This document shows, piece by piece, positions 8,394 to 31,154 of a stretch of 31,154 bases of DNA (position 1 is its first letter; the number at the start of each line of letters is the position of its first letter). Source of the DNA: Actinomycetota bacterium (GTDB lineage Bacteria; Actinomycetota; Acidimicrobiia; Acidimicrobiales; Ilumatobacteraceae); the NCBI GenBank assembly GCA_005801025.1, contig SYDZ01000040.1:1-31154 (forward strand), given 5' to 3'. The position numbers were made by a program, and so were the translations under genes. The notes below the pieces were generated by a model. The model searched no databases. It saw only the letters and a list, made by a program, of their open reading frames with translations, and was not told the origin of the DNA.

Positions 8394-8415
8394 GTCCGAT
8401 AAAAGGTCTGAGAGA

Positions 8416-8421
8416 TAGGGT
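8416..8421 (+). promoter_or_regulatory. -10 element TAGGGT, leaderless-type, for hemA
   Basis: TANNNT 7 nt before GTG 8429. Confidence 0.5.
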
Positions 8422-8428
8422 TACTGTC

Positions 8429-9691: not shown

Positions 9692-9707
9692 CGGCGAGTC
9701 AGCGCTC

Positions 9708-10589: not shown

Positions 10590-10599
10590 CATCAAAATC

Positions 10600-11343: not shown

Positions 11344-11357
11344 CTAAATATCGCCCG

Positions 11358-11363
11358 TAGGCT
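11358..11363 (+). promoter_or_regulatory. -10 element TAGGCT, leaderless-type, for hemB
   Basis: TANNNT 6 nt before ATG 11370. Confidence 0.55.
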
Positions 11364-11369
11364 GTGAGT

Positions 11370-12359: not shown

Positions 12360-12364
12360 AGCAC

Positions 12365-13732: not shown

Positions 13733-13737
13733 CGCCC

Positions 13738-13743
13738 TACGCT
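13738..13743 (+). promoter_or_regulatory. -10 element TACGCT, leaderless-type, for the hypothetical gene at 13750
   Basis: TANNNT 6 nt before ATG 13750. Confidence 0.5.
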
Positions 13744-13749
13744 TCACCT

Positions 13750-14343
13750 ATGCGACAGTTTCTCTCCTGGCGATATTGGGCGACTCTGGCATCTTTATGT
13801 GCACTGACAATACTTTTATGGATGTGCCAAGGCTCAAGCGACTCCAATCAGGTTGTCGTGGAGGCAAATAACCGTCGCATTGATCTCATTGCGCAAACGT
13901 CAACCGTGCGCTCCGACCAAGCATGGTCAGTATCAAATGGAATATCAAATGGAGATGCAACTGCGGTGTTACTTGACGGCCGAGTGTTAACGATCGCTGA
14001 TGGGACAATGGGGGAATCAACTTGTTTATTCCCGGAGGCGCTCAACGCGTGCGTTATTTTGGCTGACACTTTGGGTGATGGCATCGTTTGGTTTTCGTTG
14101 GTTCCCGCTCCAGAAGTTGGCAGTAGCGAACTTGAGTTGGCCCCGATTGAAGAATTGCTTGACGGTGTTACGTATGCCCGACTCACCAATGGCTTGGAGG
14201 TTCCTCTACTTGACGTAGTTGTGCGTCGGTGTCAGGAGGAACTACCAAATCTCACGTCATTTGTTGCCAAATATGAGAAACGGCACGTGACGATCGTGGA
14301 TCTTTCTCAAGCACAAGTATCTGCTGTGCGTTGCAAGGGTTAA
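13750..14343 (+). CDS. Hypothetical membrane-anchored or exported protein
   Basis: 197 aa; N-terminal hydrophobic helix followed by a soluble domain with several Cys. Confidence 0.7.
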   Translation: MRQFLSWRYWATLASLCALTILLWMCQGSSDSNQVVVEANNRRIDLIAQTSTVRSDQAWSVSNGISNGDATAVLLDGRVLTIADGTMGESTCLFPEALNACVILADTLGDGIVWFSLVPAPEVGSSELELAPIEELLDGVTYARLTNGLEVPLLDVVVRRCQEELPNLTSFVAKYEKRHVTIVDLSQAQVSAVRCKG

Positions 14344-14355
14344 AGCAACGACGAA

Positions 14356-15603
14356 TTACGCATGAGGTGTGAGTCGTACAATTGCGGCTGCCGCTTTATA
14401 GGCCACTTCTGCTGGTCCGATTTCATCGGGACGCAACAAGTTGGCCATGATTCTCACAACCCATTCCATCAGAGTGCGACTGTGCATTCCGACTCGCGAA
14501 AGTTCGCGCATGATCACCGGTCGACCAATGATGCGGGTAAATAAACGCGCCACCTTGAAGTATTGACCGTACTCATCGTCAATCAACATTTGGTAGCGCT
14601 GTAATGCTGCTGGGTCGTTGTTACGAATAGCGTCGGTGAGCACCTCTGCAGCCATGCGCGCAGTTTCATAGGCGTAATCAATACCGTCCCCGTTGAAGGG
14701 GTTCACACTTCCTGCTGCATCACCAATGACAAGATACGTAGGTCCAGATTTTGGTCCAACCGAGCCACCCATCGGAATTCGCCGTGAGGTTGCCTTGATT
14801 GTGGGATGATCAGGGTCAATTTCCCAGCGGTCAGCCACCATGTGGGCATAGGCATCCAGCAGGTGGGTTGTGTTCACACTTTTGAAATCGCGAAATGTTG
14901 ATAACAGCCCAACGCCGATGTTCACAGTTCCATCACCGACGGGGAAGATCCAGCCATAACCAGGCATCTGGTTTCCGTTACGGTCTTTCACATCAAGTGC
15001 CGACTCAATCCAAGGTTCAGCGTGACGTGGAGTTTCCCAATAGGTGCGAATGGCGGTTCCGTATGGCCACTCTTTAGTTCGAAAGGTCCCGAGTGATCGC
15101 CCGAAGCGACTGTTGGCGCCGTCGGCGACAATCACATAGCGCGCCGTGATATTGAAAGGAATGTCAGAGTCTTTGCTTTGAATTGTCGCTCCGCGAACAA
15201 AACCCCTTTCCAGAACTGGAGCGAGGGCTTCGTGACCTTCAAGCAACGTTGCTCCCGCGGCGACCGCATGGCGCGCCACCATTGTGTCCAGTTCTCGGCG
15301 CCGCACGACATAGCCGTGTTGTGGATAGATCGGATGCGAGGGCCAGTGCAGTTCAATGGCCTTGCCGTGCGCAGTCGTGCGCAACCCGTCGTAACGATGG
15401 AACTGAGAGAGTTGATCGCCAAGACCCATATCGTTGATCTGCTTGACAGCTCGCGGGGTTAAACCGTCACCACATGTTTTTTCCCGCGGAAAAAGCTTTT
15501 TGTCGACGATGACAACATCGAGACCCTCTGTGGCCAACCAGTACGCGGCAGCCGCACCAGCGGGTCCAGCGCCAATGATCAGGACATCGTGGTGGGAAGT
15601 CAT
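14356..15603 (-). CDS. menJ: Geranylgeranyl reductase-family flavoprotein, MenJ-like menaquinone reductase
   Basis: GAGPAG, FPREKTCGDGLTPRAV, ADGANS, YGWIFP, GDAAG.VNPFNGDGI; near nuo, as in actinomycetes. Confidence 0.7.
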   Translation of the reverse strand: MTSHHDVLIIGAGPAGAAAAYWLATEGLDVVIVDKKLFPREKTCGDGLTPRAVKQINDMGLGDQLSQFHRYDGLRTTAHGKAIELHWPSHPIYPQHGYVVRRRELDTMVARHAVAAGATLLEGHEALAPVLERGFVRGATIQSKDSDIPFNITARYVIVADGANSRFGRSLGTFRTKEWPYGTAIRTYWETPRHAEPWIESALDVKDRNGNQMPGYGWIFPVGDGTVNIGVGLLSTFRDFKSVNTTHLLDAYAHMVADRWEIDPDHPTIKATSRRIPMGGSVGPKSGPTYLVIGDAAGSVNPFNGDGIDYAYETARMAAEVLTDAIRNNDPAALQRYQMLIDDEYGQYFKVARLFTRIIGRPVIMRELSRVGMHSRTLMEWVVRIMANLLRPDEIGPAEVAYKAAAAIVRLTPHA

Positions 15604-15707: not shown

Positions 15708-16526
15708 TCAGCCAGCGACCATCACTTCTTGGTCGGCTGGGGTGCCAAGGCGGGGAGCGGTTCCGATACCCAATTCGGGGGACTCAAAGGTCAAAGTTCC
15801 AGATTCAAGGTCAAGAAAAATCTGGCTCTCTGGACTACACCACTTTTCGTACTCTTCGGCCCATTCTCCAGCGTCATCAGCACCTGAAATGTCATAACGA
15901 ATATGGCAGATGAGTCCTAAAATCTCTGCTTCGGTGAGCGCCCCACCGGCTTTTTCCCCTTGGGCGGGCATCACTCCACCGTTGTAAGACCGGGGATAGT
16001 GAGCCCCGCCCTCGCGATTCGGATCGCCGTAGGATGCGACTCCGGCGGCCTCGTAGGCCTCGGTTCCGGCATACACCCAATTCAACATGTCTTCAATATG
16101 AGGGAAAGTCTTCAACGACTCACCGTCTTTCAAGACTCGACCGGCACCACCTGCGCCGTCGGCACCGTGACAACTTGCGCAGGCACCGTAGTTCTCCATT
16201 CCGAGAGCAATCGGACCCTGTGCTTCGGCTTTTTGCGGCTCCAAGCCACGGACGTACATGAACAAGAAAATGGGCATCAAAGCAAGCGTGGCCATGGCCC
16301 AAGATGGGATGCGACCACGCGTCTTGGCGGCCGTGACATAGGCCGGATCGGGCTTCTTTGCGGGCTTTTGAGCCTCAGTTTCCACCAAAACTCGGGCGGT
16401 GGGTGTCGTTGCGCCAGTCGTCGCCGGAACTGCAGCGCCTGCAGAAACCTCTGTCGAAGAGGCATCCCCGCCAGCGGCCTTTCGGTCGCGGGATCGTTTT
16501 AAGAGGTGCTCGGGAATTTCGGTCAC
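15708..16526 (-). CDS. Membrane-anchored monoheme cytochrome c
   Basis: One TM helix, CASCH, distal VMPAQG Met; SD AAGGA before GTG. Confidence 0.85.
   Translation of the reverse strand: MTEIPEHLLKRSRDRKAAGGDASSTEVSAGAAVPATTGATTPTARVLVETEAQKPAKKPDPAYVTAAKTRGRIPSWAMATLALMPIFLFMYVRGLEPQKAEAQGPIALGMENYGACASCHGADGAGGAGRVLKDGESLKTFPHIEDMLNWVYAGTEAYEAAGVASYGDPNREGGAHYPRSYNGGVMPAQGEKAGGALTEAEILGLICHIRYDISGADDAGEWAEEYEKWCSPESQIFLDLESGTLTFESPELGIGTAPRLGTPADQEVMVAG
16494..16526 (-). repeat. MTEIPEHLLKR coding motif, copy 1
   Basis: Identical 11-aa N-terminus to the gene at 18661. Confidence 0.9.
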
Positions 16527-16628
16527 GGGCCAGTCCTTTCGGGCGTGGGGTACGACAATTTTTTGACAACGACCGAGTGGCTGTCGTCTTGAATAAGAAG
16601 ACTAGAGCGCGAGTGAGGCTATGACGGA

Positions 16629-16665
16629 ATTCCTAGCCTTTTCTGGGGCAAAAACTCCTAGGAAT
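16629..16665. repeat. Inverted repeat ATTCCTAG...CTAGGAAT in the divergent promoter region
   Basis: Perfect 8-bp arms at 16629-16636 and 16658-16665. Confidence 0.5.
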
Positions 16666-16680
16666 CTTGTCACTTAGGTA

Positions 16681-16698
16681 CCGTGAACTAACGCACAA
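16681..16698. promoter_or_regulatory. Possible Rex operator CCGTGAACTAACGCACAA
   Basis: 10 of 14 informative positions match TTGTGAA-N4-TTCACAA; lies between the divergent respiratory units. Confidence 0.35.
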
Positions 16699-16944
16699 CC
16701 CACCTCAGGGGTAGTCCACGGCGATAGACCTCAAGTAGTGAAAGATTCCGATTTTCAGCAATGCCGTCATAATTTTCTGTGTGCCCGAAATCTTTGTTTG
16801 TTCTTGTGAGTGAGTTGGGTCGCGCGAGGCTCTTGACGACTAAGGTTCTAGTCAGTTCTTCTAGAGATTTTTAATACAGCTAAGTCCACGAAACTCAAAC
16901 ATGTATCGACCTCGTTACAAGGCACGGAAGGGAATACCGGCTAG

Positions 16945-17421
16945 ATGCTGGCGATTGACATCCTGAAATGGCCAGGAATGAATCAGGCTTTCCTGTTCTC
17001 CTTGGCTTTGACAACAATTCTTGCGGGTCTTGTTTTTGTGTACGGCAAACGCCGTCCTATCGGTACTCCCATGTCATGGGGCGAGGCGATGTTTGGCTCT
17101 GTGTACGCATTTTTCCTGATGTTCTTGGCTTACGGAGTTGTGCCTCATCAATGGTTAGTCCATGTTCAAAATGAACTCGGTTGGCAATCCGACAAGCCAT
17201 TCCTCGGACCGGGATCAATCTTTAAATCCCAAGCAGCCGGTGGAAGTTTCCCGTTTGATATCAACTATCTGCAGATTGGTGATATCGCCGTCACTGGTAT
17301 TTATGGATTGTTTCTGGGCGCTCAGATTTACATGTGGACGTGGTGGCAAAAGCGTGGCGCAACAAAGTCCACCGAGGTTGAGCAATCTAGTTACGGTCGT
17401 CCTTTGGTGAAGAAGGCATAA
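16945..17421 (+). CDS. Uncharacterised membrane protein (about 3 TM), first gene of the respiratory operon
   Basis: 158 aa hydrophobic ORF; GGAAGG upstream; 4 nt from the ferredoxin gene. Confidence 0.75.
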   Translation: MLAIDILKWPGMNQAFLFSLALTTILAGLVFVYGKRRPIGTPMSWGEAMFGSVYAFFLMFLAYGVVPHQWLVHVQNELGWQSDKPFLGPGSIFKSQAAGGSFPFDINYLQIGDIAVTGIYGLFLGAQIYMWTWWQKRGATKSTEVEQSSYGRPLVKKA

Positions 17422-17425
17422 TCCC

Positions 17426-17839
17426 ATGACTCGCACTGACGCCAATCCGCCAATGATGCCGTACTCCGACCAGTATCAACTGGTTGAAGTTGACGCTGAT
17501 TATCTCACCAAGGCGGTGAAGCCCAAGCAATTCATTCATATCGACCAGTCGGAATGCATCATGTGCGAGGGTTGCGTTGATATCTGTCCGTGGAAGTGCA
17601 TCCACATGGTGACTCCCGATGCTGTGGCAGAAGCCACCAACACCGAGCTCCCTGGGCTTGACCCTAACGACCATGTTCTGTTCATTATTGATGATGATGT
17701 TTGTACGCGTTGTGCACTGTGCGTCGATCGGTGTCCGACCGGCGTCATCATTCTTGGCAAGGCTGGTGCGGCTCTCGCAACTGGCGACACTCACACACGT
17801 ACCGCTAATCACGGTTACGCATATGGAATGCGTTTCTAG
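17426..17839 (+). CDS. 2x[4Fe-4S] dicluster ferredoxin-like protein
   Basis: CIMCEGCVDICP and CTRCALCVDRCP; no signal peptide or TM. Confidence 0.92.
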   Translation: MTRTDANPPMMPYSDQYQLVEVDADYLTKAVKPKQFIHIDQSECIMCEGCVDICPWKCIHMVTPDAVAEATNTELPGLDPNDHVLFIIDDDVCTRCALCVDRCPTGVIILGKAGAALATGDTHTRTANHGYAYGMRF

Positions 17840-17850
17840 GAGAAAAACCC

Positions 17851-18633
17851 ATGGCAAAAGTCATTGACGATCCTCGTCCAACAGCAAAAGAGCGTCTGAA
17901 TCAGACGGTAGAGAATGTTCAAGGCAGTCAAGCCTGGAACTCAATCTTCCGTCCTGGTTCTATTTTCCGTAAGGGCTACACCGATAGCCCACGTAACCGC
18001 TCGTACGTCATCATGAACTCGGTGCTTTATCACTTGCATCCCGTGAAGGTCAAGCGTCATGCCGTCAAGGTGAGCTACACCTTGTGTTTGGGTGGACTCA
18101 GTTTCTTCCTCTTCATTCACTTAACGGTGACAGGCATTTTCTTGATGTTCTTCTACCGCCCTGAAGCCACGGCAGCGTGGAATGACATCAGTAGTTTGCA
18201 GACCTCGGTGGCCTTCGGATTACTTGTGCGAAATATGCATCGATGGGGAGCACACTTAATGGTGCTCTCGGTGTTCTTGCACATGGCCCGTGTTTTTTAT
18301 CATGGTGCGTACAAAGCTCCGCGTGAATTTAACTGGGTGATCGGTGTCGTCTTATTGACACTGACCTTGCTCCTTTCCTTCACAGGTTATTTGCTTCCAT
18401 GGGATCAGTTGTCAATGTGGGCGGTCGCCGTGGGTACCAACATGATGGGGTATACCCCAGTCTTTGGTTCTCAAGTGCGTTTTGTATTGCTCGGTGGTGT
18501 TGAGATCGGTTCTGAGACGTTGCTGCGATGGTATGTGCTGCATGTTCTCATGTTGCCTTTCGTCATCGTGATTTTCATGGCTATCCACTTCTGGCGTGTC
18601 CGCAAGGACGGTGGCATCTCAGGTCCGTTGTGA
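17851..18633 (+). CDS. petB: Cytochrome b N-terminal subunit (cytochrome b6-like)
   Basis: CLGG (heme-ci Cys), RNMHRWGAH..FLHMARV, GYLLPWDQ, LHV..AIHF; ends GISGPL like cytochrome b6. Confidence 0.9.
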   Translation: MAKVIDDPRPTAKERLNQTVENVQGSQAWNSIFRPGSIFRKGYTDSPRNRSYVIMNSVLYHLHPVKVKRHAVKVSYTLCLGGLSFFLFIHLTVTGIFLMFFYRPEATAAWNDISSLQTSVAFGLLVRNMHRWGAHLMVLSVFLHMARVFYHGAYKAPREFNWVIGVVLLTLTLLLSFTGYLLPWDQLSMWAVAVGTNMMGYTPVFGSQVRFVLLGGVEIGSETLLRWYVLHVLMLPFVIVIFMAIHFWRVRKDGGISGPL

Positions 18634-18660
18634 CCAGTGCCTGAAAGGAAATGACTCAAC

Positions 18661-18693
18661 ATGACTGAAATCCCCGAACACCTTTTGAAGCGA
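18661..18693 (+). repeat. MTEIPEHLLKR coding motif, copy 2 (degenerate copy 3 IPAHLLER at 18778-18801)
   Basis: Translation identical to copy 1. Confidence 0.9.
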
Positions 18694-19413
18694 GCGCAAG
18701 CCGCTCGCGATCAGGCCGCTGCGCAGGCTGGCGCGGCGTCCCCTAGTTCCAGTGATGCTTCAGCCGCAGATCCGCGCATTCCGGCTCATCTTCTTGAGCG
18801 CAGCAAAGCGGCGAAAGATAAAACTGGCGGAGCGCAAGTTGCTGTCGCCGAAAAGGTGGGTGCCCTTGTGGGTGCTGCTCCAGTCGCCGCAGGTCTGCCC
18901 ATCGGAGCGGGTCCAGGTGGTCATACTCAACGTTTGTTGACAGTCGTCAAGTCGGGCTCGATTCAAGATGTCAAAGCCACCCCAGTTGACAAAGTGCATA
19001 CGTGGCCTCACCTGCTGGCAGTTGAATTTGTGGCGGCCGTTGCTTGCACTGCGTTTTTGTTCTTCGTGGCAATCTTCGTCAATGCTCCCTTGTTGCAGTT
19101 GGCTAACCCCAACCAAACGCCCAACCCGTCAAAGGCTCCTTGGTACTTCTTGGGACTTCAAGAATTGTTGACGATGTTCCACCCGATGGTGGCTGGTGTG
19201 ACAATTCCTGGAGTGGCATTGTTTGCTTTAATTTTGGCTCCGTTCATTGACAAGAATCCGTCCAACAAACCTGAGGACCGCAAGTTTGCGACTTCGATCA
19301 TGACTATTCACCTGATGTTTTGGGCCGTGTTGGTCATCATCGGATCTTTCTTCCGTGGCCCTGGTTTCAACTTCGTCTTCCCTTGGCGGGACGGCCTGTT
19401 CTTCGAGTTGTGA
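18661..19413 (+). CDS. petD: Cytochrome b C-terminal subunit (subunit IV-like) with long N-terminal extension
   Basis: WPHLL, ANPNQTPNPSKAPWYFLGLQELL, PFIDKNP. Confidence 0.85.
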   Translation: MTEIPEHLLKRAQAARDQAAAQAGAASPSSSDASAADPRIPAHLLERSKAAKDKTGGAQVAVAEKVGALVGAAPVAAGLPIGAGPGGHTQRLLTVVKSGSIQDVKATPVDKVHTWPHLLAVEFVAAVACTAFLFFVAIFVNAPLLQLANPNQTPNPSKAPWYFLGLQELLTMFHPMVAGVTIPGVALFALILAPFIDKNPSNKPEDRKFATSIMTIHLMFWAVLVIIGSFFRGPGFNFVFPWRDGLFFEL

Positions 19414-19426
19414 GGATCACACTTTT

Positions 19427-20284
19427 ATGACACCGCTAGCAACAATCGTTTTAGTTATCCTCGCCCTAGTGGTGTTGGCTGCTGTCATGGTCATTACTTC
19501 AGCGCGACGCTCTGATGTACGCGGCGCAGGAGCCCTTGCGCGAGAAACTGTGAAGCGTGACAAGTCAATTAAGGCTGAAGCGGGAGATGCTCCTTCAGGA
19601 TCTGCGTATGAATCACAGGCAATCGCTACTCGCACCGCCGTTCTTGAAAAAGCTACTGAAGTCGCCCCAGTGGTCTGGCGAGCGCCAGATCAAGAGGCCG
19701 TTGATGTTTCCCGTCGCCAGTTTTTCAACCGTGCGTCAATCTTTTTGGTGCTCACGGGTACAGCGGCATTTGGCGCTTCGCTGATTGCCTTTTTGTGGCC
19801 TCGGGCTGGCGGCGGTTTCGGTTCCAAGGTGAATGTCGGTCGCCTTGATGACTTGATAGCGCAGATTCGCAGTGAACGCGGTTTTGTCTATAAGCCCGAG
19901 GCGCGCACTTGGCTGACCACTTACCCCGCTGATTCTCTCCCCAAGGCGCGGTTGTCGTACGGCAATCAGGGGCCAGTTTTAAACGGTATGGAAAATGGCC
20001 TTGTCGCGCTCTACCAGAAATGTCCCCACCTGGGTTGTCGAGTTCCTGAATGCAAGAGTTCGCAGTGGTTTGAATGCCCATGTCATGGATCGCAGTACGA
20101 CCGTGTTGGTGAGAAGAAGGCAGGTCCTGCGCCACGTGGTATGGATCGCTTTGGTATCAACGTGTCTAATGGAAACGTCATTGTTGACACGGGGACAATA
20201 TTTAATGGTCCTGCCATTGGTATCAACACGACTGGACAGGAAGCCGAAGGACCCCACTGCGTTTCCGGAGAGGCAAAGCACTGA
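19427..20284 (+). CDS. petC: Rieske [2Fe-2S] subunit
   Basis: CPHLGC and CPCHGSQY; internal SRRQFF Tat motif; ATG 19427 after GAGGA. Confidence 0.92.
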   Translation: MTPLATIVLVILALVVLAAVMVITSARRSDVRGAGALARETVKRDKSIKAEAGDAPSGSAYESQAIATRTAVLEKATEVAPVVWRAPDQEAVDVSRRQFFNRASIFLVLTGTAAFGASLIAFLWPRAGGGFGSKVNVGRLDDLIAQIRSERGFVYKPEARTWLTTYPADSLPKARLSYGNQGPVLNGMENGLVALYQKCPHLGCRVPECKSSQWFECPCHGSQYDRVGEKKAGPAPRGMDRFGINVSNGNVIVDTGTIFNGPAIGINTTGQEAEGPHCVSGEAKH

Positions 20285-20286
20285 TC

Positions 20287-21351
20287 ATGATTTCGCTCGT
20301 CACTTCTACTTTCGCCTCGCTCATAGCACTGTTTTTCGTCATCGGTTACGTCACCTATGCATTCTTCAATCGATCAGCGGGTCGCGCTGAGATTGGTTCA
20401 GAGATTGAACTTGCCGCTAACCGTAAAGAATATTTTGATGATGAAATTCTTGAGGGTAAGCGCCTGCAGAAAATGCAATTGCTCGGTGTCTTGATGCTGG
20501 CAACGATCACTATTGGATTACCTGCTTACTGGATTTTGGAACCGAGTCGTCAAGCCGGCGCAACAAGCGGTAAAGAAAATCGCTTTATTGAGTGGGGCTC
20601 AAACCTTTTTGCTCCAACTGCTGAGGGTGGATTCAACTGCGCTGGTTGTCATGGTGGAATGAAAGGCCCAGGTGGTGCCGCTCCGTACACAATCACTGAT
20701 TCTAAAACTGGTGAAGTGAAATCAGTGTTGTGGAAAGCCCCAGCAATTAACACCGTCTTTTATCGTTTTGATGAAAGTGAAGTTCGTTTCATCCTGCAAT
20801 ACGGCCGTCCGTTTTCGCCAATGTCCCCGTGGGGGATTGAGGGTGGTGGACCACTCAACGCCCAACAGATTGACACGTTATTGGCGTACCTCAAGAGCAT
20901 TCAGATTCCGCGTGAAGACTGCATCGTGGCTGACGCCAAGCCGTTGAACTGTGAAGGTGGACATTTGCCTCTGGTTGAGCAGGAAAAGGTCCAAGCCGCC
21001 GCCGAAAAGTCTGTCGCGGATGGTACCTACGGCTCAATTGGGGAAGCGCTTTTCAATCTCGAATTAGGATCAGGTGGTTTTAGTTGTGCTCGTTGCCATA
21101 CGCCTGGATGGAGTTGGGGAGAGCCTGGACAGACTGGTTCGGGCGCCTATGGCTGGAACCTCACCGGTGGAGCGACGAACAGTCACTTCGCGACTGAGCA
21201 AGAAATGATCAACTTCATCAAGGCTGGCTCAAAGTTCGGAGCGAAGTACGGTGTCCAAGGACAAGGTTCGGGTCGGATGCCTGGCTTTGGAGATTTATTA
21301 ACTGCTGAACAGATCCAACAGATCGTGAACTACGTGCGGAACGAATTATGA
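20287..21351 (+). CDS. Membrane-bound diheme cytochrome c
   Basis: CAGCH (20638-20652) and CARCH (21085-21099); distal Met in PMSPW and RMPGF; two N-terminal hydrophobic helices. Confidence 0.9.
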   Translation: MISLVTSTFASLIALFFVIGYVTYAFFNRSAGRAEIGSEIELAANRKEYFDDEILEGKRLQKMQLLGVLMLATITIGLPAYWILEPSRQAGATSGKENRFIEWGSNLFAPTAEGGFNCAGCHGGMKGPGGAAPYTITDSKTGEVKSVLWKAPAINTVFYRFDESEVRFILQYGRPFSPMSPWGIEGGGPLNAQQIDTLLAYLKSIQIPREDCIVADAKPLNCEGGHLPLVEQEKVQAAAEKSVADGTYGSIGEALFNLELGSGGFSCARCHTPGWSWGEPGQTGSGAYGWNLTGGATNSHFATEQEMINFIKAGSKFGAKYGVQGQGSGRMPGFGDLLTAEQIQQIVNYVRNEL

Positions 21352-22166
21352 GCACCATGTTAAGCATCGCTTGGGAACCCGAAATTCGCGGGCTTCTCAC
21401 GGTCATTATCGCCGTTGTTGCCTTATGTGGAAGTGTTTACCTGATCCTTGCAACCAACATGGGTGCTCGCTTAGGACTCTTAGTTGCGCTTGCGGGACTC
21501 AGCGGTTGGATGGTCATGATGGGTGTTATCTGGATGACCTACGGCATTGGTCTCAAAGGTAATGAGCCGTCATGGAAGCCGGCGCAACCCTTCACAGTCG
21601 TACGCGATGTAGCCCTGTTACCACAGGCCGAAGTGCTCGTTAACTCGGTGAAGATTCCTGAGGGGGCATCTCCAGTTGAGGCTGCTGCTGTCGGAGCGGA
21701 AGCTCTGCGAGAAGAAAATTGGAAGGTTCTCCCAATCGATGATAAGGGTCGTGGTCAGTCCATCGCGGCGGCAGACGAAATCATTCAAGTTGAAGCCGAG
21801 TTGTACGCCGGCGGGGAATACCAAGCAGTCGCGGTGTATGACCGCGGTGGTGAGCGTTATCCAAAGATCGGCGACAAAGTTGACTTCCTTGCCTTCTTTC
21901 ACAAACCGCATTACGCGATTGTGGAAATTGCCGCTCTTGTGCCACAGAGAGTCGAACCTGGTCGCGCTCCTGCACGGCCCGTTATTGACGAGAGTAAGTC
22001 TCACCAATATATTGTCATGATTCGCGACCTTGGCACCAAGCGTCAACCAGCGTTGCTGGTCACCTTTGGCTCTGGAATCATTTTCTTCATCTGTTGCTGG
22101 ATGTTGCATCGCCGTGATCGTACTTTGGCTGCCAATCTTGCCATGCCTGTTCCTGCGGTGGCCTAA
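21348..22166 (+). CDS. Uncharacterised membrane protein between cytochrome c and nuoA
   Basis: 272 aa with two N-terminal and one C-terminal hydrophobic helices; ATGA overlap with the cytochrome c gene. Confidence 0.75.
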   Translation: MSTMLSIAWEPEIRGLLTVIIAVVALCGSVYLILATNMGARLGLLVALAGLSGWMVMMGVIWMTYGIGLKGNEPSWKPAQPFTVVRDVALLPQAEVLVNSVKIPEGASPVEAAAVGAEALREENWKVLPIDDKGRGQSIAAADEIIQVEAELYAGGEYQAVAVYDRGGERYPKIGDKVDFLAFFHKPHYAIVEIAALVPQRVEPGRAPARPVIDESKSHQYIVMIRDLGTKRQPALLVTFGSGIIFFICCWMLHRRDRTLAANLAMPVPAVA

Positions 22167-22169
22167 CTG

Positions 22170-22634
22170 ATGGGGCAATATCTTCCCGTTGTAGCGCTCA
22201 CCATCCTTGCCGTTCTTTTTGGGGCGTTAAGTTTTGTGGCCTCAAAGTTGCTGGCTCCTCGCCGACCGTCATTGGCGAAAGATGCGCCTTACGAATGTGG
22301 CATTGTCCCCAGCCGCGAACCACCCGAGCGTTTTCCTGTCAGTTTCTACATCGTGGCGATGTTATTTATCATGTTCGACATTGAAATCATTTTCATTTAT
22401 CCGTACGCCGCCAACCGAGCCGAACTTGGTGCCTTTGCGTTTTGGGAGATGTTTGCATTTAGCGTTGTTTTCTTCTTGGCTTTCGTTTATGTCGTAGCCC
22501 GCGGAGCCCTTGACTGGGGTCCGTTGGCAAAGGCCCGCCGTTTAGTTGATGGTGTCTCGGCAACCCGCACGACGACGACGACAATTCGTCGAGTCGGACT
22601 AGATGGTCGTCTCGGCGACGATCAGGCAGCTTGA
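22170..22634 (+). CDS. nuoA: NADH-quinone oxidoreductase subunit A
   Basis: [25 protein letters not shown]. Confidence 0.95.
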
Positions 22635-22650
22635 GCGTTGGGGGACTGAC

Positions 22651-23250
22651 ATGGGTTTGGTGCGCAACGTTCTTGATGATGGACTCGGAGGCGTTGAGCA
22701 CAACTTCATCACCGGAAAAATTGAAGATTTAGTTAAGTGGTCGCGTAGCCGTTCAAGTTGGGGCGCAACTTTTGGTCTGGCTTGTTGCGCTATTGAAATG
22801 ATGGGAACTGGCGGCCCGCACTATGACATCGCCCGCTTCGGAATGGAAGTATTCCGCGCCTCGCCGCGTCAGGCAGACATCATCATTGTTGCGGGTCGTG
22901 TGAGTCAGAAGATGGCCCCAGTTCTGCGTCAGGTGTATGACCAAATGATGGAACCGAAGTGGGTGATCTCCATGGGTGTGTGTGCATCAAGTGGTGGGAT
23001 GTTTAATAACTACGCAATTCTTCAAGGTGTCGATCAAATCGTTCCTGTTGACGTTTACGCTCCTGGTTGTCCTCCGACACCTGAAACTTTGATTCATGCA
23101 ATCGAGACCTTGCATCAAAAGATTGAAGACGGAGAAATCATGCGTCGTCGCGCTAGCAGTGGAGCGGGTGCAAACATCCACATCACCGAGATTCCAGCGC
23201 AAACTGCACCAGTCTCTCTATCAATTGGCCGCACAGAGACCTGGTCATGA
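22651..23250 (+). CDS. nuoB: NADH-quinone oxidoreductase subunit B
   Basis: [31 protein letters not shown]; ATG 22651 after GGGGA. Confidence 0.96.
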
Positions 23251-23747
23251 GCGATCAAGAAGGAACTCCTGAAGCCCAACCGATGTTGCATGGTTGCCCA
23301 CTCACTGACTCACACGGGCAAGCGGTGGTGCACCCTTCGCGCGCACAGTACGTGGCGCTTCTGAAAAAATTATTAGATAGTGGCTACGCAATGTGTTGCG
23401 ATCTGACAGCGGTGGACTTTCTCACTCACCCCGGACGTTCATTACCCGACGGAATCGTTGCTGAACGATTTGAAATCGTTGTCAATCTCACAGCAATCGC
23501 TTCTCGTGATCGCATTCGTGTGCGTGTTCAGGTGCCTGAATCAGACACAACTATCGCATCAGTGTTTGACCTTTGGCCGGGGACAGAGGCGATGGAGCGC
23601 GAAGTTTTTGATATGTTCGGCATTTCCTTTGATGGCCATCCTGATCTGACGCGTATTTTGATGCCAGAAGACTGGGATGGTCATCCGCTGCGCAAGGATT
23701 ATGAAATTGGTCGTATCCCTGTTCAGTTCAAGGGGTCGCACTCATGA
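23247..23747 (+). CDS. nuoC: NADH-quinone oxidoreductase subunit C
   Basis: [35 protein letters not shown]. Confidence 0.96.
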
Positions 23748-25078
23748 CGTCTGGTCAAAATATTTTTAAGACCAACGAAGGGGCCCAGGAAATGCGTGCC
23801 CGCAGCGAAATCAGCGCCAAGGAAATTTTGCGTGAAGTTGGTTCGGTCCTACGCATGAGTGAAGCCGAAGTTGCCAATCTTGGGCAATCGTCGGGCGATT
23901 CTGACGAAGATCAAACGATGATCATCAACATGGGGCCTCAGCACCCCAGCACTCACGGAGTATTGCGTTTGATGTTGGAGTTGCAAGGTGAAACTGTTCT
24001 GCGTTGCAAGCCGATCATTGGCTACTTGCACACCGGGATGGAGAAAACTGGTGAAGACCTGACGTACATGCAAGGTGGCACCAATGTCACGCGCATGGAT
24101 TATTTGAGTCCATTAAATAATGAGCTTGTTTTCTCAATGGCTGTTGAAAAATTGCTTGGCATTGAAAACGATATTCCTGAGCGTGCCGTATGGATGCGAA
24201 TGCTCCTTTCAGAACTCAATCGCATGAGTAGCCATTTGTTGTTCTTGGCTACGAACGGTATGGATCTTGGCGCAGTGTCAATGATGTTGTATGGCTGGCG
24301 TGAACGTGAAGAGGTTTTGCGCTTCTTTCAAAAGGTGACTGGCTTGCGCATGAATCACAACTTCATTCGTCCTGGAGGTGTGGCAGCCGACCTGCCTGCG
24401 GGTTGGCGCAGCGATGTTCTTGAGATTCTTGAAATGTTGCCGGGTCGTCTGGCCGAATACGACATCTTGATGACCGATCAACCCATCTGGCGTGAGCGTC
24501 TGCAAGGTGTTGGCGTGATTACTGCAGATGAAGCTTTGGCCCTCGGAACGAGTGGACCGATTTTGCGCTCAACGGGTGTGGCGTGGGACCTGCGACGGGA
24601 TCAGCCGTATCTGCATTATGAGAAGATGGAGTTTGATGTCATCGTCGGTTCCTACGGCGACGCCTTTGATCGTTATGCAATCCGCATCAATGAAATTCGC
24701 GAGTCGATGCGCATCGTGTATCAGATTCTTGACAATATGCCCAAGGGTGACTACCGCATTCAGAATAAGAAAGTGACTCCACCGCCGCGAGCACGCATTG
24801 ACGAATCTATGGAAGCACTGATCCACCACTTCAAGATTTTCACCGAGGGATTCAAGGTTCCTGAGGGTGAGGTTTATGTGGCGATTGAAAGTCCGCGCGG
24901 AGAAATTGGTTGCTACATCGTCAGCGACGGTGGCTCCAAGCCATATCGCATTCATATGAGGGCCCCCAGTTTTGTCAATATCCAGGCTTTGCCACACATG
25001 ATGCGTGGTGGCTTAGTAGCCGATGCAGTCGCAGTGATTTCGTCCATTGACCCAGTTCTAGGAGAGGTTGATCGCTGA
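23744..25078 (+). CDS. nuoD: NADH-quinone oxidoreductase subunit D
   Basis: NMGPQHPSTHGVLRL, IGYLHTGMEK, RMDY, ESPRGE, DPVLGEVDR. Confidence 0.97.
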   Translation: MTSGQNIFKTNEGAQEMRARSEISAKEILREVGSVLRMSEAEVANLGQSSGDSDEDQTMIINMGPQHPSTHGVLRLMLELQGETVLRCKPIIGYLHTGMEKTGEDLTYMQGGTNVTRMDYLSPLNNELVFSMAVEKLLGIENDIPERAVWMRMLLSELNRMSSHLLFLATNGMDLGAVSMMLYGWREREEVLRFFQKVTGLRMNHNFIRPGGVAADLPAGWRSDVLEILEMLPGRLAEYDILMTDQPIWRERLQGVGVITADEALALGTSGPILRSTGVAWDLRRDQPYLHYEKMEFDVIVGSYGDAFDRYAIRINEIRESMRIVYQILDNMPKGDYRIQNKKVTPPPRARIDESMEALIHHFKIFTEGFKVPEGEVYVAIESPRGEIGCYIVSDGGSKPYRIHMRAPSFVNIQALPHMMRGGLVADAVAVISSIDPVLGEVDR

Positions 25079-25692
25079 TGTCGCGTTTATCTGAAGGCAA
25101 CATTCGTCTTGCCAAGGAGATCATTGGTCGCTATCCGCGTCCGCGTTCGGCGATGATCCCCTTATTGCACATGGCTCAGCAACAAGATGGCTACATCACC
25201 AATGATGCGATGGTGCATATTGGTGAACTTGTCGGTTCGACATCAGCCGAGGTCTACGGCACGGCGTCGTTCTACGAGATGTTCAAGTTTGAACCAGTTG
25301 GAAAATATCTGGTCAATATCTGCGGAACCTTGTCTTGTGCGCTGATGGGATCAGAGGAACTGATGCATTATGCCGAACACAAGCTGGGCGTCAAGATGGG
25401 CGGGACGACCGATGATGGCATGTTCACTCTTGAGCACGCAGAATGTCAGGCAGCTTGCACCGAGGCACCCTGCCTTCAAGTGAATTATCGTTACCGCTTC
25501 CGAGTGACGGCAGCCGATTTTGATTCACTGATTGATGATTTGTCCGCTGGTCGTCTCGTTGATGAGATCCCTGCGCACGGCACAGTGGCTCGGGTGGGCC
25601 AGCACATTCCGCGCGACCGTGGTGTCGGAGCGATACCCCCAGAGTCAGTAACCGAAGCCCCTGTTTGGTTGGATGGAAAGGCTGCGCTATGA
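25078..25692 (+). CDS. nuoE: NADH-quinone oxidoreductase subunit E
   Basis: CGTLSC and ECQAACTEAP [2Fe-2S] ligands; ASFYEMF. Confidence 0.95.
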   Translation: MSRLSEGNIRLAKEIIGRYPRPRSAMIPLLHMAQQQDGYITNDAMVHIGELVGSTSAEVYGTASFYEMFKFEPVGKYLVNICGTLSCALMGSEELMHYAEHKLGVKMGGTTDDGMFTLEHAECQAACTEAPCLQVNYRYRFRVTAADFDSLIDDLSAGRLVDEIPAHGTVARVGQHIPRDRGVGAIPPESVTEAPVWLDGKAAL

Positions 25693-27089
25693 CCGGTACC
25701 TACGCACACGCTCCAGGATTTATCGTCGGAGATCGCCCGAAAATTGTGACCTCACGATTTGAATACGAAGATTCATACACGTTGACGCGTTACTTGGCAA
25801 CTGATGGCTACCAGGGTCTGCGCGCCGCTCTCAGTCGCCCAGCCAATGAAGTGCACGACGAAGTACGGACCGCTACGGTGCTCGGGCGCGGCGGTGCAGG
25901 TTTCCCTGCTGGAACAAAATGGGGTCTCACTCCGCAAGGCGTCTACCCGCGTTATCTCGTTGTCAACGGCGATGAGAGTGAACCAGGAACTTATAAAGAT
26001 CGTCTGCTGATGGAGCGCGATCCACATCAATTGATTGAAGGCTGCCTGATCGCGTGTTACGCAGCAGGTTTATCGCAGTGTTTTTTGTATATCCGCGGCG
26101 AGATGGCCCTTGCTCAAGAGCGAGTCGCAGTTGCGTTGAATGATGCTTATGCAGCCGGCTATATCGGTAAAAATATTTTGGGCACACACTTTTCTGTTGA
26201 CATTGTTCTCCATTGGGGTGCAGGTGCTTATGTTGTTGGCGAAGAAACTGCACTGATTGAAAGTCTTGAGGGCAATCGTGGCATGCCACGATTGAAGCCT
26301 CCTTTCTTCCCTGCAGCAAATGGTCTGTACGGTCAACCAACGATTGTCAACAATGTTGAAACCTTGGCGAACTTGCCGTGGTTGATGTGCAATGGTGCCG
26401 AGGCCTACACGGCGATTGGAACTAAGACATCTCCAGGAACCCGTATGGTTGCTGTGAGTGGCCATGTCAAGCGACCCGGTGTTTATGAAATCGTCAATGG
26501 TGTCACTACATTTCGGGATTTGTTGTACAAAGAGGAATTCTGTGGCGGCATTCGCAATAACAATGAACTCAAGGCCTTCGTTCCTGGCGGTGGCTCGGCA
26601 CCTTGGTTCACACCAGATCAATTGGATCTTCCCTTTGAGGGCAGCCAGGTTGGTGCAGCAGGTTCAATGCTCGGTTCAGGAGCGATCATGGTGATGGATG
26701 AGACCACTGACATCCCAGCTGCTGCTTTGACACTTACTCGTTTTTACGCTCACTAATCTTGTGGCAAGTGCACGCCGTGTCGTGAGGGCGGAACTTGGCT
26801 TGAGCGCATTTTGAGTCGTGTCGTTGATGGCAAGGGAACGGCCGCCGATCTTGAGCAGTTAATTGAGGTTGGCACTTCAATTTGCCCTGGAGATTTCCCC
26901 CATGCCTCCAATGAGAAGTTGGGGCTAGCGGCGGTTCCTTTCCCATACAAGATGAACACCATTTGTTTCGTTGGACCATCGGCATATGCGCCTGTGAACT
27001 CGGCCCTGGTGCTGTTCCGCGAAGAGTTTGAAGCAAGAATTGTCAAACGACACACCATTCCTGTGACTGCTGTGGGAGCGGCGTTATGA
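25689..27089 (+). pseudogene. nuoF: NuoF interrupted by in-frame TAA at 26754-26756 (pseudogene or sequence error)
   Basis: GRGGAGFP, NGDESEPG, GAGAYVVGEET; reads FYAH*SCGKCTPCREG where HESCG is expected, then continues in frame to TGA 27089. Confidence 0.9.
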
Positions 27090-29455
27090 CCACCACCGAA
27101 CCGAATATCGAAGTGGAGATACCTCTTGACCCCAATGCGATCACGATGTCGATCAACGGCAAGTCGGTAGCGGCGCGTAAAGGTGAATTGATTATTGCTG
27201 CGGCCGATCGCAGTGGCGATTATATTCCACGTTTCTGTTATCACCCACGGATGAGTTCTGTTGGCATGTGTCGTCAATGTCTCGTTGAAGTGGAAGGCCC
27301 GCGCGGACCGATGATGGTGGTCAGTTGTATGACTTCGGTAGGTGAAGGTCAGATTGTTCGCACCGAAACTGAGCAAGTGAAACGGGCCCAAGAGGGAATC
27401 GTCGAGTTGCTCCTCGCCAATCATCCGCTCGACTGTCCGGTGTGTGACAAGGGGGGCGAATGCCCATTGCAAGATCAGGCCTTTAGTCATGGTCCAGGGG
27501 AAAGTCGTTTCATAGAAGAGAAGCGTCATTACGAAAAGCCCATTCCGATTAGCGATTTAGTGTTGCTGGATCGCGAGCGTTGCATCTTGTGCGATCGCTG
27601 CACTCGTTTTGCCGATGAAGTCGCTGGTGATGCATTGATCCAATTCACCTCGCGTGGGAATAACACGCAAATTCAGACATTCCCAGACGAGCCATTTAGT
27701 TCGTATTTCTCTGGCAACACAGTGCAGATTTGCCCCGTTGGGGCCCTGACTGCTCAGCCGTATCGCTTTAAGGCACGTCCTTGGGATCTCGCTAAGATCG
27801 AAAGCACTTGCACGACCTGTTCCGTTGGTTGTCGCATCACACTCGAATCGAGTCGCGATGAAATGTTGCGCTATCAAGGCGTGGACAGCGATCCGGTGAA
27901 TCATGGGTGGCTCTGCGACAAGGGTCGTTTCAACTTTGAGTCAATAAAGAGTAACCAACGCATTGAAAATCCAATGGTGCGGTCCGATGGAGATCTTGTT
28001 GCTACTTCGTGGAGCGTGGCTTTGTCTAGTGCAGCCAGTCTCATCGCCCAAGCGATCAAAGACGGGGGTCCACAAAGTGTGGCGATTCTCGGTGGTGCTC
28101 GCGGAACGAACGAAGACGCTTATGCGTGGGCACGTTTGGCGCAGTCCTTAGGTATCAGCAATGTTGACGCTCAATTTGATGATGGTCTTCCAACGTCGCT
28201 CTTTGGCTATGCCCAAGCAACGATTGATGAGGCTGCTCATGCCACGACAGTGTTATTGCTGTCTCCCGACCTCAAAGAAGAATTGCCGATTTTGTATGTG
28301 CGCTTACGTGATGCGTCAGAGAAGAAGCGCAGCAAACTCATTGAGTTTGTACCCAAGCAAACGGGACTCACGCGCTATGCCTGGAAGTCGGCCAGTTACG
28401 AACCAGGTCGTCAGGTGTCGGTGATCCAGCAGACGCTGACCGATCCTGCGGTAGCGGCTCAAATCGCTCAGGGCTCAGTTGTCGTCGTTGTCGGTCGGGC
28501 GAACTTGGCTGAAAACGATTCATTCACGATGGCTGCCCTTGATGCAGTGTTGGCCATCGCCCCATAGGCCACGGTCCTGCCAGTCGTACGTCGTGGCAAT
28601 ATCCGTGGAGCCGTTGAAACTGGATTGGTCATGGGGTCAACCAACTCAATTCTGCGATCGGCTATTGATGGCGAGATCAATTGCTTGGTTCTCGTTGGTG
28701 CTGATCCGATGAATGACGTTCCCGATTCACATCTTGTACGTCAAGCGCTGGCAGCGGTCCCGAAAATTATCGCCGTTGACACAACGATGTCACCTTCGTT
28801 GCAACGTTGTGAGGTCGTTCTACCTGCTGCCGCTTTTGGCGAGAAGGATGGCACCACAACCAACCTTGAAGGTCGCGTCACACAACTCAACCGCAAGGTC
28901 AACGCACGCGGTACAGCCCGTCCCGATTGGATGATTGCTGTAGAACTTGGCGAGTTATTAGGCCATGATTTGGGCTTGGGATCGGTGCAAGAAATTCATT
29001 CCCAACTAGCACGCAATGTGGCGAGTTTCGCTGATGTTTCGCGTGCCGCATTAGCTGTGAATCCCGATGGTGTGTTGCTCCGTCGTTCGATGACCCAGCC
29101 ACACAGTGCGACCGCCACGGAAGTTCCAGTTCACTCGGGTTTTGGATATCGATTAGTCGTCAGTCGCAAGTTGTATGACAATGGCACGAACGTCGCCCAG
29201 TCTCCGTCCTTGATGGGACTTGCCCCAAGTTCTGCATTACATATGCACCCGCTCGATTTCAGCAGTCTTGGAGTTGACGAAGGAACATCCATCAAAGTCT
29301 CAAATCACCGCACCTCAATCGTCATCCCAGTTGTGATGGACGAATCGATAGTACGTGGCACAGTGTGGGCGGCATGGGCACTGATTGGCGCGAATATCGG
29401 TGAACTCATTGATTCGTCACGTCTAGTCAATGATGTGAATGTGGAGACTCTGTGA
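27086..29455 (+). pseudogene. nuoG: NuoG interrupted by in-frame TAG at 28565-28567 (pseudogene or sequence error)
   Basis: CYHP..CRQC, HPLDCPVCDKGGECPLQD, CILCDRC, CPVGAL, CTTCSVGC; AIAP*ATVLPVVRRGN continues in frame into the 28625-29455 ORF. Confidence 0.9.
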
Positions 29456-30672
29456 TGGTCGGCAGTGCATCACTACTCGGACTTGATCCAATTTCTATCG
29501 GCAATCTGATGTGGGCGCCCTTGCTCATTATTTTGATGAAGGTCGTCGTTGTCTTTGGAGTCGGACTAGTAGCCACGATGTTGATGGTGTGGTTTGAGCG
29601 AAAAGCAATCGCCGGCATGAATAACCGCATTGGGCCCAATAAGGCTGGTCCCTGGGGCCTCTTGCAAACCCTCGCAGATGGCACAAAGTTGTTCTTCAAA
29701 GAAGATCTGCTTCCTGAACGCGCCGACCGTTTTGTTTTTAGATTGGCTCCGTTCTTGGCATTCGTTCCCGCCTTTTTGGTGTGGTCAATCATTCCTCTCG
29801 GTGGAGATTTCTCGAACGGTAAAGATGGTCTCGTGACTTGGTTTGGTCACACCACGCGAGTGCAGTTAGCCGATCCTCCCGTGGGCATTTTGCTGTTGTT
29901 GGCGCTCTCATCAATTGCGGTCTACGGCATCATGCTGGCGGGCTGGTCAAGCGGCTCAAAGTATCCGCTGTTGGGATCAGTTCGAGCTTCAGCGCAGATG
30001 GTTTCTTATGAAGCTGCTCTTGGTTTGAGCGTGGCTACCGTCATCTTGTTGGCTGGCACATTGTCAACTAGTGGAATCGTTGGTCACCAAGGGAACTTCG
30101 CGAATTGGCATGTCATCTCAACGGGTGTCATTCCATTCGTGATCTTCATGATCGCCGCCACTGCCGAGATGAACCGTCCACCCTTCGACTTAGTTGAGGC
30201 CGAGCAAGAACTCGTGGGTGGTTTCAATACTGAGTATTCCGGCATTCGCTTCGGGTTATTTTTCTTGGCCGAATTTATGAACACCATTACCATGAGTGGA
30301 ATCATTGTCACGCTGTTCTTCGGTGGGCCACAAGGACTCTTTGATATCCCCGGCATTCCTGGTGCGTGGGAAGGCACCCTATGGCTCATCGCCAAGATCG
30401 TGGTCTTCTTGTATATCTATGTGTGGATGCGTGCCACATTGCCTCGCTTCCGTTATGACCAGTTGATGAATCTCGGTTGGAAGATCTTGATTCCCGCTTC
30501 GCTGGGATGGTTCATGTTGATGGCCGTTCTGCGTCTTGCTCGGGATCAAGATTGGAATCGTGGTGTCGTGGTTACTGCTTGCATTGTTGTGCTATTACTT
30601 TGCGTGGGAATTTTGTCGTTAGCAAATCGTGTCAGTAAAGCCAACCGCGAACGTGAAGGAGCGATGTTCTGA
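29452..30672 (+). CDS. nuoH: NADH-quinone oxidoreductase subunit H
   Basis: [46 protein letters not shown]. Confidence 0.96.
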
Positions 30673-31130
30673 TGGGCTACCTCGGAGGATTTCTCGTCAC
30701 CCTGGCCCAGGTAGGTCGGCGCAATAAAGTCACCCTCGAATATTCCGGTGGTCGCGAGAACAAAAAGGGCAAGCCACAACGCGATGAAAAAGCTCCTAAG
30801 CCAGAACGCTTGCACGGCCGCCATGTTTTGAACCGTTACGAAGATGGTATGGAGAAATGCATTGGTTGCGAATTGTGCGCCGGTGTGTGCCCAGCCAAGT
30901 GCATCTATGTCCGTGGTGCCGATAATGATCCAGAAAATCCGACCTCACCAGGTGAGCGCTTCGGCTTTGTCTACGAGATCAACTACTTGCGCTGCATTCA
31001 CTGCGATCTCTGCGTTGAAGCCTGTCCAACGGAGGCAATCACAGAGTCGAAGTTGTTTGAGTTCTCATTTTTGAATCGTCAGGATGCGATCTACACAAAA
31101 ACTGAACTCGTTGTCGGTGATGATGGCTAG
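30672..31130 (+). CDS. nuoI: NADH-quinone oxidoreductase subunit I; the stop at 31128 may be premature
   Basis: [12 protein letters not shown] and [12 protein letters not shown]; after TAG the frame continues PLQLPWED to the window end. Confidence 0.93.
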
Positions 31131-31154
31131 CCACTGCAGTTGCCGTGGGAAGAC

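Follow-up and report, generated by a model that had tools for sequence, protein, structure and literature searches.

A split, b6-type complex III with an operon-encoded dicluster ferredoxin in Acidimicrobiia and related Actinomycetota

Split cytochromes b of the APWY type are already known from the Actinomycetota. In the relevant sections of their paper, Kao and Hunte assign five split actinobacterial cytochromes b, including one from Ilumatobacter (Acidimicrobidae), to an APWY or a PEWY-cyt c clade, and describe the APWY clade as bearing a CxGG haem-ci motif and as containing no characterized member (Kao and Hunte, 2014; PMC4122944). Here we examine an operon of this sort in a 31,154-nt stretch of DNA (the window), contig C4 of a metagenome-assembled genome (MAG) with a size of 1.6 Mb and a completeness of 69%. 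Near-identical loci bear source labels of freshwater Ilumatobacteraceae (order Acidimicrobiales, class Acidimicrobiia), which places the MAG in that family. In the window, a gene (fdx) for a small 2x[4Fe-4S] “dicluster” ferredoxin directly precedes the cytochrome b genes, and it is this pairing of ferredoxin and b6 that appears to be new. We found no description in the literature of a ferredoxin gene in actinobacterial bc operons. More specifically, the relevant sections of the accounts of the APWY clade and of Dibrova's subfamily G, to which the window complex possibly belongs, do not describe a dicluster ferredoxin gene, or the membrane-protein genes here called memA and memB, in actinobacterial operons, and do not show sole-complex-III status for whole classes (PMC4122944; PMC5600118). 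Our reading, which we regard as reasonably probable, is that the operon would encode the sole, b6c-type complex III of its lineage, with the ferredoxin serving as an accessory electron port on the cytoplasmic (n) side.

The closest structural comparison for the core is with cytochrome b6f and the b6c complexes of Bacillus and the heliobacteria, which likewise combine a four-helix b6 bearing the haem-cn cysteine with a three-helix subunit IV. In the window, as judged from Pfam scans and the list of open reading frames (ORFs), cytochrome b is split between two plus-strand genes 27 nt apart. The first (17851–18633) encodes a b6-type subunit of 260 aa and 29 kDa, the four-helix part (PF00033, Cytochrome_B/b6, E 3e-46), and the second (18661–19413) a subunit IV-like protein (PF00032, Cytochrom_B_C). 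Among solved structures, the nearest to the b6 subunit are chloroplast and cyanobacterial b6, which match it end to end (1e-47), with mycobacterial QcrB at 1e-24. Four haem-b histidines can be read from the sequence, H130, H144, H231 and H246, which we take to align with His86, His100, His187 and His202 of cytochrome b6; the window protein has an N-terminal extension of ~45 aa. Codon 79 is TGT (18085–18087), placing the cysteine of a YTLCLGG segment where b6 has Cys35, the residue that binds haem ci/cn, and from the position of this CLGG we predict that haem cn would be bound covalently to Cys79. A preliminary description of the window had proposed just such a split, b6-like cytochrome b with a haem-ci cysteine, and both the Pfam matches and the codon agree with it.

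The differences from b6f and b6c lie elsewhere in the operon. There is no gene for cytochrome f and none recognized for PetG, PetL, PetM or PetN, and the Qo motif in subunit IV is APWY (19135–19146; NPSKAPWYFLGLQE at 19135) rather than PEWY or PDWY. Subunit IV also carries a cytoplasmic N-terminal extension of ~110 aa with two IPxHLLxR peptides. For b6f, one account cites a proposed entry of electrons from ferredoxin at haem cn (PMC5600118); the ferredoxin of b6f is the general photosynthetic one, whereas that of the window is dedicated and encoded within the operon. With its split cytochrome b, its CxGG and its APWY, the window operon resembles the APWY clade as portrayed in the relevant sections of Kao and Hunte (PMC4122944). 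Because the two sequence marks of that clade, CLGG in b6 and APWY in subunit IV, are both present, the core is most likely a member of this known, uncharacterized group, a placement that rests on the motifs and on identities to an APWY operon of another lineage (64% for b6, 39% for subunit IV).

A third point of reference is the QcrCAB complex of Mycobacterium and Corynebacterium, with which the window operon shares a dihaem cytochrome c, a Rieske protein with extra N-terminal hydrophobic segments and, presumably, a menaquinone-using Gram-positive host. The Rieske [2Fe-2S] protein (19427–20284, plus strand, start ATG at 19427; PF00355) has an N-terminal helix, an RRQFF sequence, a second hydrophobic segment and the cluster boxes CPHLGC and CPCHGSQY, the latter of which we take to indicate a high potential. 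It is followed by a QcrC-like, membrane-anchored dihaem cytochrome c (20287–21351, plus strand; Pfam Cytochrom_C) with CxxCH at residues 118 and 267. Unlike QcrCAB, however, cytochrome b is split, its 260-aa b6 part standing against a single QcrB of ~540 aa; the genes run b6–subunit IV–Rieske–cytochrome c instead of qcrC-qcrA-qcrB; and no cta genes adjoin. The preliminary description had remarked on the departure from the long QcrB of typical actinomycetes and on the lack of a linked oxidase, and both remarks hold: in the complete relatives, more than 300 kb separate COX1 from the operon. Taken together, the split b6, APWY subunit IV, Rieske protein and dihaem cytochrome c point to a b6c-type menaquinol:cytochrome c oxidoreductase, beside which the operon holds three lineage-specific genes, memA, the cytoplasmic 2x[4Fe-4S] gene and memB.

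Is this complex an addition to a canonical qcrCAB, as the preliminary description had contemplated? The gene counts say otherwise. The MAG itself, at 69% completeness, has a single PF00033 match, and each of five Acidimicrobiia genomes that are 98–100% complete has exactly one cytochrome b, always adjoining fdx. Since it is the sole cytochrome b in complete relatives, the complex is the housekeeping complex III, the lineage's sole one, rather than an extra system.

The ferredoxin gene (17426–17839, plus strand) encodes a cytoplasmic protein of 137 aa and 15 kDa with matches to Fer4 families and two CxxCxxCxxxCP motifs. All eight cluster cysteines are invariant among 29 diverse homologues, family-specific extensions stand on both sides of the dicluster core, and neither a signal peptide nor an RR motif was seen when the sequence was read by eye. 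The C-terminal tail GYxYG(M/V)R(F/W) is confined to the class Acidimicrobiia. Certain longer proteins that appeared to be fusions were discarded as candidates: in the ferredoxin–cytochrome b fusions P0186 and P0203 the ferredoxin is truncated, so that they resemble chimeras produced by a frameshift or by the assembly, and the memA–ferredoxin fusions P0140, P0213 and P0236 contain no second recognized domain.

The ferredoxin is matched at E ≤ 0.001 in 41 of 41 relatives. Of the 16 other families of the order that were sampled, 13 have a match at orthologue level (65–76% identity). A profile built from diverse members of the ferredoxin family matched 183 of 401 genomes across the phylum, ~157 of them at orthologue level once weak matches (E ~1e-13 to 1e-17) are left out of the tally. 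These phylum counts for ferredoxin and b6 take in six unpublished genomes (G041, G088, G128, G160, G357 and G375), and no single claim depends on them. Family by family in the phylum sample, the families with the ferredoxin are the families with a close b6 orthologue. By their source labels, the carriers comprise Acidimicrobiia, the isolate IMCC26256 and Nitriliruptorales/Nitriliruptoraceae. The ferredoxin was not found in sampled genomes that have a long QcrB in place of b6, among them large-genome actinomycetes and two families of the same order; in two genomes of that order (G213 and G265) a long QcrB-type cytochrome b, with open frames of 534 and 611 aa, stands in place of the b6 module, which suggests that the whole module may have been replaced by the QcrB type.

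Gene order is equally constant. The succession fdx–b6–subunit IV–Rieske–cytochrome c is colinear in all 16 loci fetched from seven families, often with a weak memB homologue next in line, and even a ferredoxin homologue of only 34% identity has a memA-sized ORF on one side and a cytochrome b gene on the other. The scan for related loci took the best 80, the closest, and says nothing of distribution outside the family; within such close loci, memA adjoins fdx in 76 of 76. memA itself (16945–17421, plus strand), the first gene of the operon, encodes a membrane protein of 158 aa with no Pfam family, and an Atlas search with it returned Actinomycetota hypothetical proteins only. The ferredoxin–cytochrome b linkage, whose loss the preliminary description had named as the observation that would count against it, is in fact conserved across Acidimicrobiia and several other deep Actinomycetota families. 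Compared with a same-order locus, identities are 71% for ferredoxin, 84% for b6, 65% for subunit IV and 54% for Rieske, and at phylum level the corresponding values are 55%, 74%, 49% and 43%; to judge from these identities, the ferredoxin evolves as slowly as the core and catalytic subunits.

The Rieske/cytochrome b complexes of anammox bacteria offer the most telling comparison for the ferredoxin; those of Kuenenia, Kuste4569-4574 and Kustd1480-1485, are reportedly also treated in a 2013 work by Kartal. In both, an n-side NAD(P) oxidoreductase has been modelled and proposed to receive electrons from haem bN/cn via an Fe-S chain (Hauser et al., 2025; PMC12954380). Their presumed function, the bifurcating production of NAD(P)H, likewise has the standing of a proposal. 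The window operon is like these complexes in its b6-like cytochrome b and subunit IV, and in having an Fe-S protein as a counterpart of their n-side subunit. It is unlike them in lacking both a GltD-like FAD/NAD(P) module and a multihaem cytochrome c, so that only two clusters and a dihaem cytochrome c are found. The hosts differ too, being here aerobic heterotrophs in which the complex is the only complex III.

The resemblance of the Fe-S proteins emerged from an exhaustive search of 1.84 billion representative proteins. Beyond its own family, the best single-domain matches to the dicluster core include the C-terminal domains of two GltD-like proteins, P0255 and P0264, which carry Fer4_20 and Pyr_redox_2. 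With the terminal domain of one of these GltD-like proteins the ferredoxin shares 46% identity over 78 aa and the same long inter-cluster loop. The gene for P0255 lies directly before a Rieske gene, and that for P0264 directly after a b6 fragment (64% identical to the window b6) and an APWY subunit IV, with multihaem cytochromes following; the window's subunit IV is 39% identical to that of an anammox-type operon (L123), which also has APWY. An Fe-S electron-wire domain homologous to the n-side subunit of anammox-type complexes is, in other words, encoded in the window operon, while the GltD-like FAD/NAD(P) module is not part of the 137-aa protein, in which Pfam recognizes Fer4 families only. 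The actinobacterial ferredoxin looks like the membrane-proximal Fe-S module of such an n-side subunit, minus the flavin part.

Downstream, the operon continues into complex I. From memA through nuoI there are 16 genes, all on the plus strand; the gaps computed from their coordinates are 4, 11, 27, 13, 2, −4 and 3 nt in succession from memA to nuoA, and from there through nuoI there are overlaps alone. The one-strand array of the preliminary description (membrane protein, ferredoxin, cytochrome b, subunit IV, Rieske, cytochrome c, membrane protein and nuo genes, with gaps of at most 27 nt or overlaps) is confirmed by these gaps and by Pfam. The bc module closes with memB (21348–22166), a membrane protein of 272 aa with no Pfam family, and there follow nuoA (22170–22634; Oxidored_q4), nuoB (22603–23250; Oxidored_q6), nuoC (23247–23747; Complex1_30kDa), nuoD (23744–25078; Complex1_49kDa), nuoE (25078–25692; 2Fe-2S_thioredx), nuoF (25665–27089), nuoG (27086–29455), nuoH (29452–30672; NADHdh) and nuoI (30672–31130; Fer4), the window ending 24 nt further on. 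All nine of the nuo genes announced in the preliminary description are recognized by Pfam, although nuoF and nuoG are intact only if in-frame stops are read through. In nuoF a TAA at 26754–26756 splits Complex1_51K and NADH_4Fe-4S over two ORFs; in nuoG a TAG at 28565–28567 leaves Fer2_4, NADH-G_4Fe-4S_3 and Molybdopterin divided between ORFs at 27086–28567 and 28625–29455. The nuoF stop amounts to a single G-to-T difference, the same codon being GAA (in HESCG) in three genomes of the same genus (G001, G008 and G010), one of them 94% identical over the nuoF stretch. Because these relatives read GAA there, the stop would seem peculiar to the MAG, where it would reflect a very recent mutation or else a mistake in base calling or assembly.

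How far the linkage to complex I extends is a matter of taxonomic rank. Directly after memB comes nuoA in all 54 close loci with enough sequence, and another seven families of the order have fdx and nuoI on one strand, ~13.5 kb from each other. In other orders of the class, nuo genes lie 7–8 kb downstream or divergently upstream; in other classes they are not within 17 kb of the bc module, though fdx and memB remain. The nuo linkage is therefore not conserved beyond the class, being contiguous in the order alone and loosened within the class. Weak memB homologues follow the cytochrome c gene without adjacent nuo genes at five loci of other classes (L107, L109, L113, L114 and L122), and because memB keeps its place beside the bc genes even where nuo lies elsewhere, it would be part of the bc module and not a bridge between complexes I and III. 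As to a boundary between the bc genes and nuoA, a promoter/terminator scan of 16300–31154 gave counts at the level of shuffled sequence (10 versus 10.3 expected; 19 versus 16.1). No terminator beyond chance separates the two gene sets, while one promoter-like site within memB cannot be judged: this sigma-70-like site, TTGACG-17-TATATT (10/12; 21985–22013), lies ~160 nt before nuoA and is of a kind no more frequent than in shuffled sequence. Contigs from a freshwater metatranscriptome span the memB–nuoA junction, which is compatible with co-transcription. The continuation into nuoA-N is a gene order kept at the level of the order and partly of the class, and complexes III and I are probably co-expressed. 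The adjacency of bc and nuo genes is no evidence of physical or mechanistic coupling.

On the other side of memA, a membrane-anchored monohaem cytochrome c (15708–16526, minus strand) diverges from the operon; it has one CxxCH (CASCH) and a weak Pfam Cytochrom_C match, and a homologue holds the same position in locus L120. The peptide (V/M)TEIPEHLLKR opens both this cytochrome and subunit IV, and IPxHLLxR is repeated inside the latter. The motif IPxHLLxR(S) recurs in IMCC26256 and in a same-order genome (L116, 4243 and 4438; L120, 4475 and 2145). A further order of the class, and other classes in which the ferredoxin is present, lack it. As a general dock for the ferredoxin it was rejected, the peptide being limited to part of the Acidimicrobiia and the ferredoxin being far wider in its distribution. 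Just upstream of the cytochrome genes, within 8357–15603, are hemA, hemC, hemB and hemL, together with the gene for a 415-aa flavoprotein resembling geranylgeranyl reductase (14356–15603, minus strand). In loci L124 and L130, of other families, a ResA-like thioredoxin gene and hemL precede memA. Because haem-synthesis, prenyl-reductase-like and monohaem cytochrome c genes adjoin, the region looks like a general neighbourhood of respiratory and cofactor genes.

What, then, would the ferredoxin do? We propose that it docks on the cytoplasmic (n) face of b6 and subunit IV, where its two clusters would act as a port through which electrons pass between a redox partner in the cytoplasm and the low-potential chain at its haem bN/cn end. 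Apart from this accessory protein, the complex would be an ordinary Q-cycle enzyme delivering electrons to a haem-copper oxidase encoded far away. Electrons might pass in either direction, entering to prime or reduce the Qi site, or leaving by an outlet for low-potential electrons.

Several observations weigh against such a port. Four genomes of family f72 (G204, G243, G269 and G217; loci L124–L127) have no ferredoxin orthologue anywhere, yet retain memA, b6, subunit IV, Rieske and cytochrome c together with the CLGG cysteine, and one of them is a single contig of 95% completeness. Comparison with loci L130 and L131 indicates a clean loss of fdx from between memA and b6 in three genera, whose sister genera retain it; in G204, memA stands directly before b6. 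From these genomes we take the ferredoxin to be accessory, in that the complex should function, and the CLGG cysteine is kept, in its absence. Nor did the loss leave a clear docking trace: of the 243 positions that are conserved across b6, subunit IV and Rieske, a single one, V96 of subunit IV, is changed in all four ferredoxin-less genomes, and no conserved b6 or Rieske position is altered relative to ferredoxin-bearing operons. V96 (window 18946) lies in RLLTVVKSG, a stretch of the cytoplasmic N-terminal part immediately ahead of the first helix; as a candidate docking residue it is a lead at best. The RLLTVVKSG stretch is also conserved, as RVLGVVEG, in subunit IV of the anammox-type operon. 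Further, one 51%-identical homologue (P0145) is not beside a cytochrome b. The 51%-identical ferredoxin homologue at L022 (672–1085) is a possible orphan paralogue: CGAGYGC is inserted in the first of its cluster motifs, and the 511-aa protein encoded next to it, on the downstream side, is no relative of cytochrome b. The AlphaFold model of the ferredoxin has a pLDDT of 65.5, a moderate confidence, and a Foldseek search of the PDB with it gave weak matches alone (E ≥ 3e-3), to FwdF, NdhI and PsaC-type modules; being informative on fold class only, these were set aside as a functional clue. Finally, freshwater metatranscriptome contigs cover fdx and span memA–fdx–b6, but such contigs are no proof of single transcripts, as the libraries may contain DNA.

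The loss of the ferredoxin without loss of the complex bears on two other explanations as well. One would make it an ordinary soluble ferredoxin for unrelated metabolism that is merely co-transcribed, as its generic dicluster fold and the homologue lying away from any cytochrome b might also suggest. We consider this distinctly unlikely, because the place directly before b6 is held from 100% down to ~34% identity and across classes, because sampled long-QcrB genomes, two same-order families included, did not yield it, and because its dicluster core is flanked by family-specific extensions. The other would cast it as an assembly or maturation factor, a reductant for haem cn attachment or cofactor insertion that never becomes a stable subunit. 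Such a protein could well be small and cytoplasmic and co-occur only with CxGG-type b6 operons, as the ferredoxin does, and no known haem-cn maturation gene was recognized among the operon genes scanned with Pfam. A maturation factor for haem cn is nevertheless hard to reconcile with ferredoxin-less genomes that keep the CLGG cysteine and an intact operon; moreover, the ferredoxin's conservation equals that of the core subunits, and the outside relatives noted above are electron-wire domains of an oxidoreductase subunit and not maturation proteins. We therefore think a maturation role unlikely.

The remaining alternatives accept that the ferredoxin works with the complex and assign it a more ambitious task. 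In a bifurcating outlet, the high-potential Rieske protein would oxidize low-potential menaquinol while the second electron passed via very low-potential b haems and haem cn into the [4Fe-4S] clusters. Given the presumed high-potential Rieske box and menaquinone, this is thermodynamically conceivable, as has been argued for anammox, yet we hold it improbable. Were it true, it would be a respiratory source of ferredoxin-level reducing power for aerobic actinobacteria and a minimal, flavin-free version of the scheme proposed for the anammox complexes, with the co-expressed complex I a possible sink or source. The preliminary description went further still and raised the prospect of a I–III supercomplex for cyclic, reverse or bifurcating flow, in which the ferredoxin and memB would join the two complexes. 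The 3-nt gap between memB and nuoA with no terminator beyond chance, the adjacency of these genes in all 54 close loci and the metatranscriptome contigs that bridge them are what such a union might lead one to expect. The synteny survey nevertheless gives it no support: adjacency is limited to one order and gone from other classes that keep fdx and memB, memB travels with the bc genes and not with nuo, and the haem-synthesis and prenyl-reductase-like genes of the region speak for a general respiratory neighbourhood. Adjacency of respiratory-complex genes is in any case weak evidence of contact, and we judge the supercomplex highly unlikely.

If the ferredoxin is instead the accessory n-side port that we favor, its consequences reach well beyond the window. 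In lakes, oceans and soils, Acidimicrobiia and their deep-branching relatives among the Actinomycetota are abundant, and the only complex III of these lineages would seem to combine haem cn with a dedicated dicluster protein, a departure from both the textbook actinobacterial bcc and b6f. The interest lies in a pairing that is widespread and experimentally accessible; the window's own contribution is the test of linkage to complex I, a linkage that does not extend outside the class. One carrier at least has been cultured, strain IMCC26256, whose genome has the module, and other cultured members of these lineages, such as Ilumatobacter, Acidimicrobium, Nitriliruptor and Euzebya, are expected to be carriers too, while the ferredoxin-less genera of f72 form a natural knock-out set for comparison with their sister genera. 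Should the dicluster protein be a true n-side subunit, these bacteria would offer a simple aerobic system in which to test haem cn as a port for ferredoxin-level electrons, a long-standing idea that has been put forward for cyclic flow in b6f and for NAD(P)H generation in anammox.

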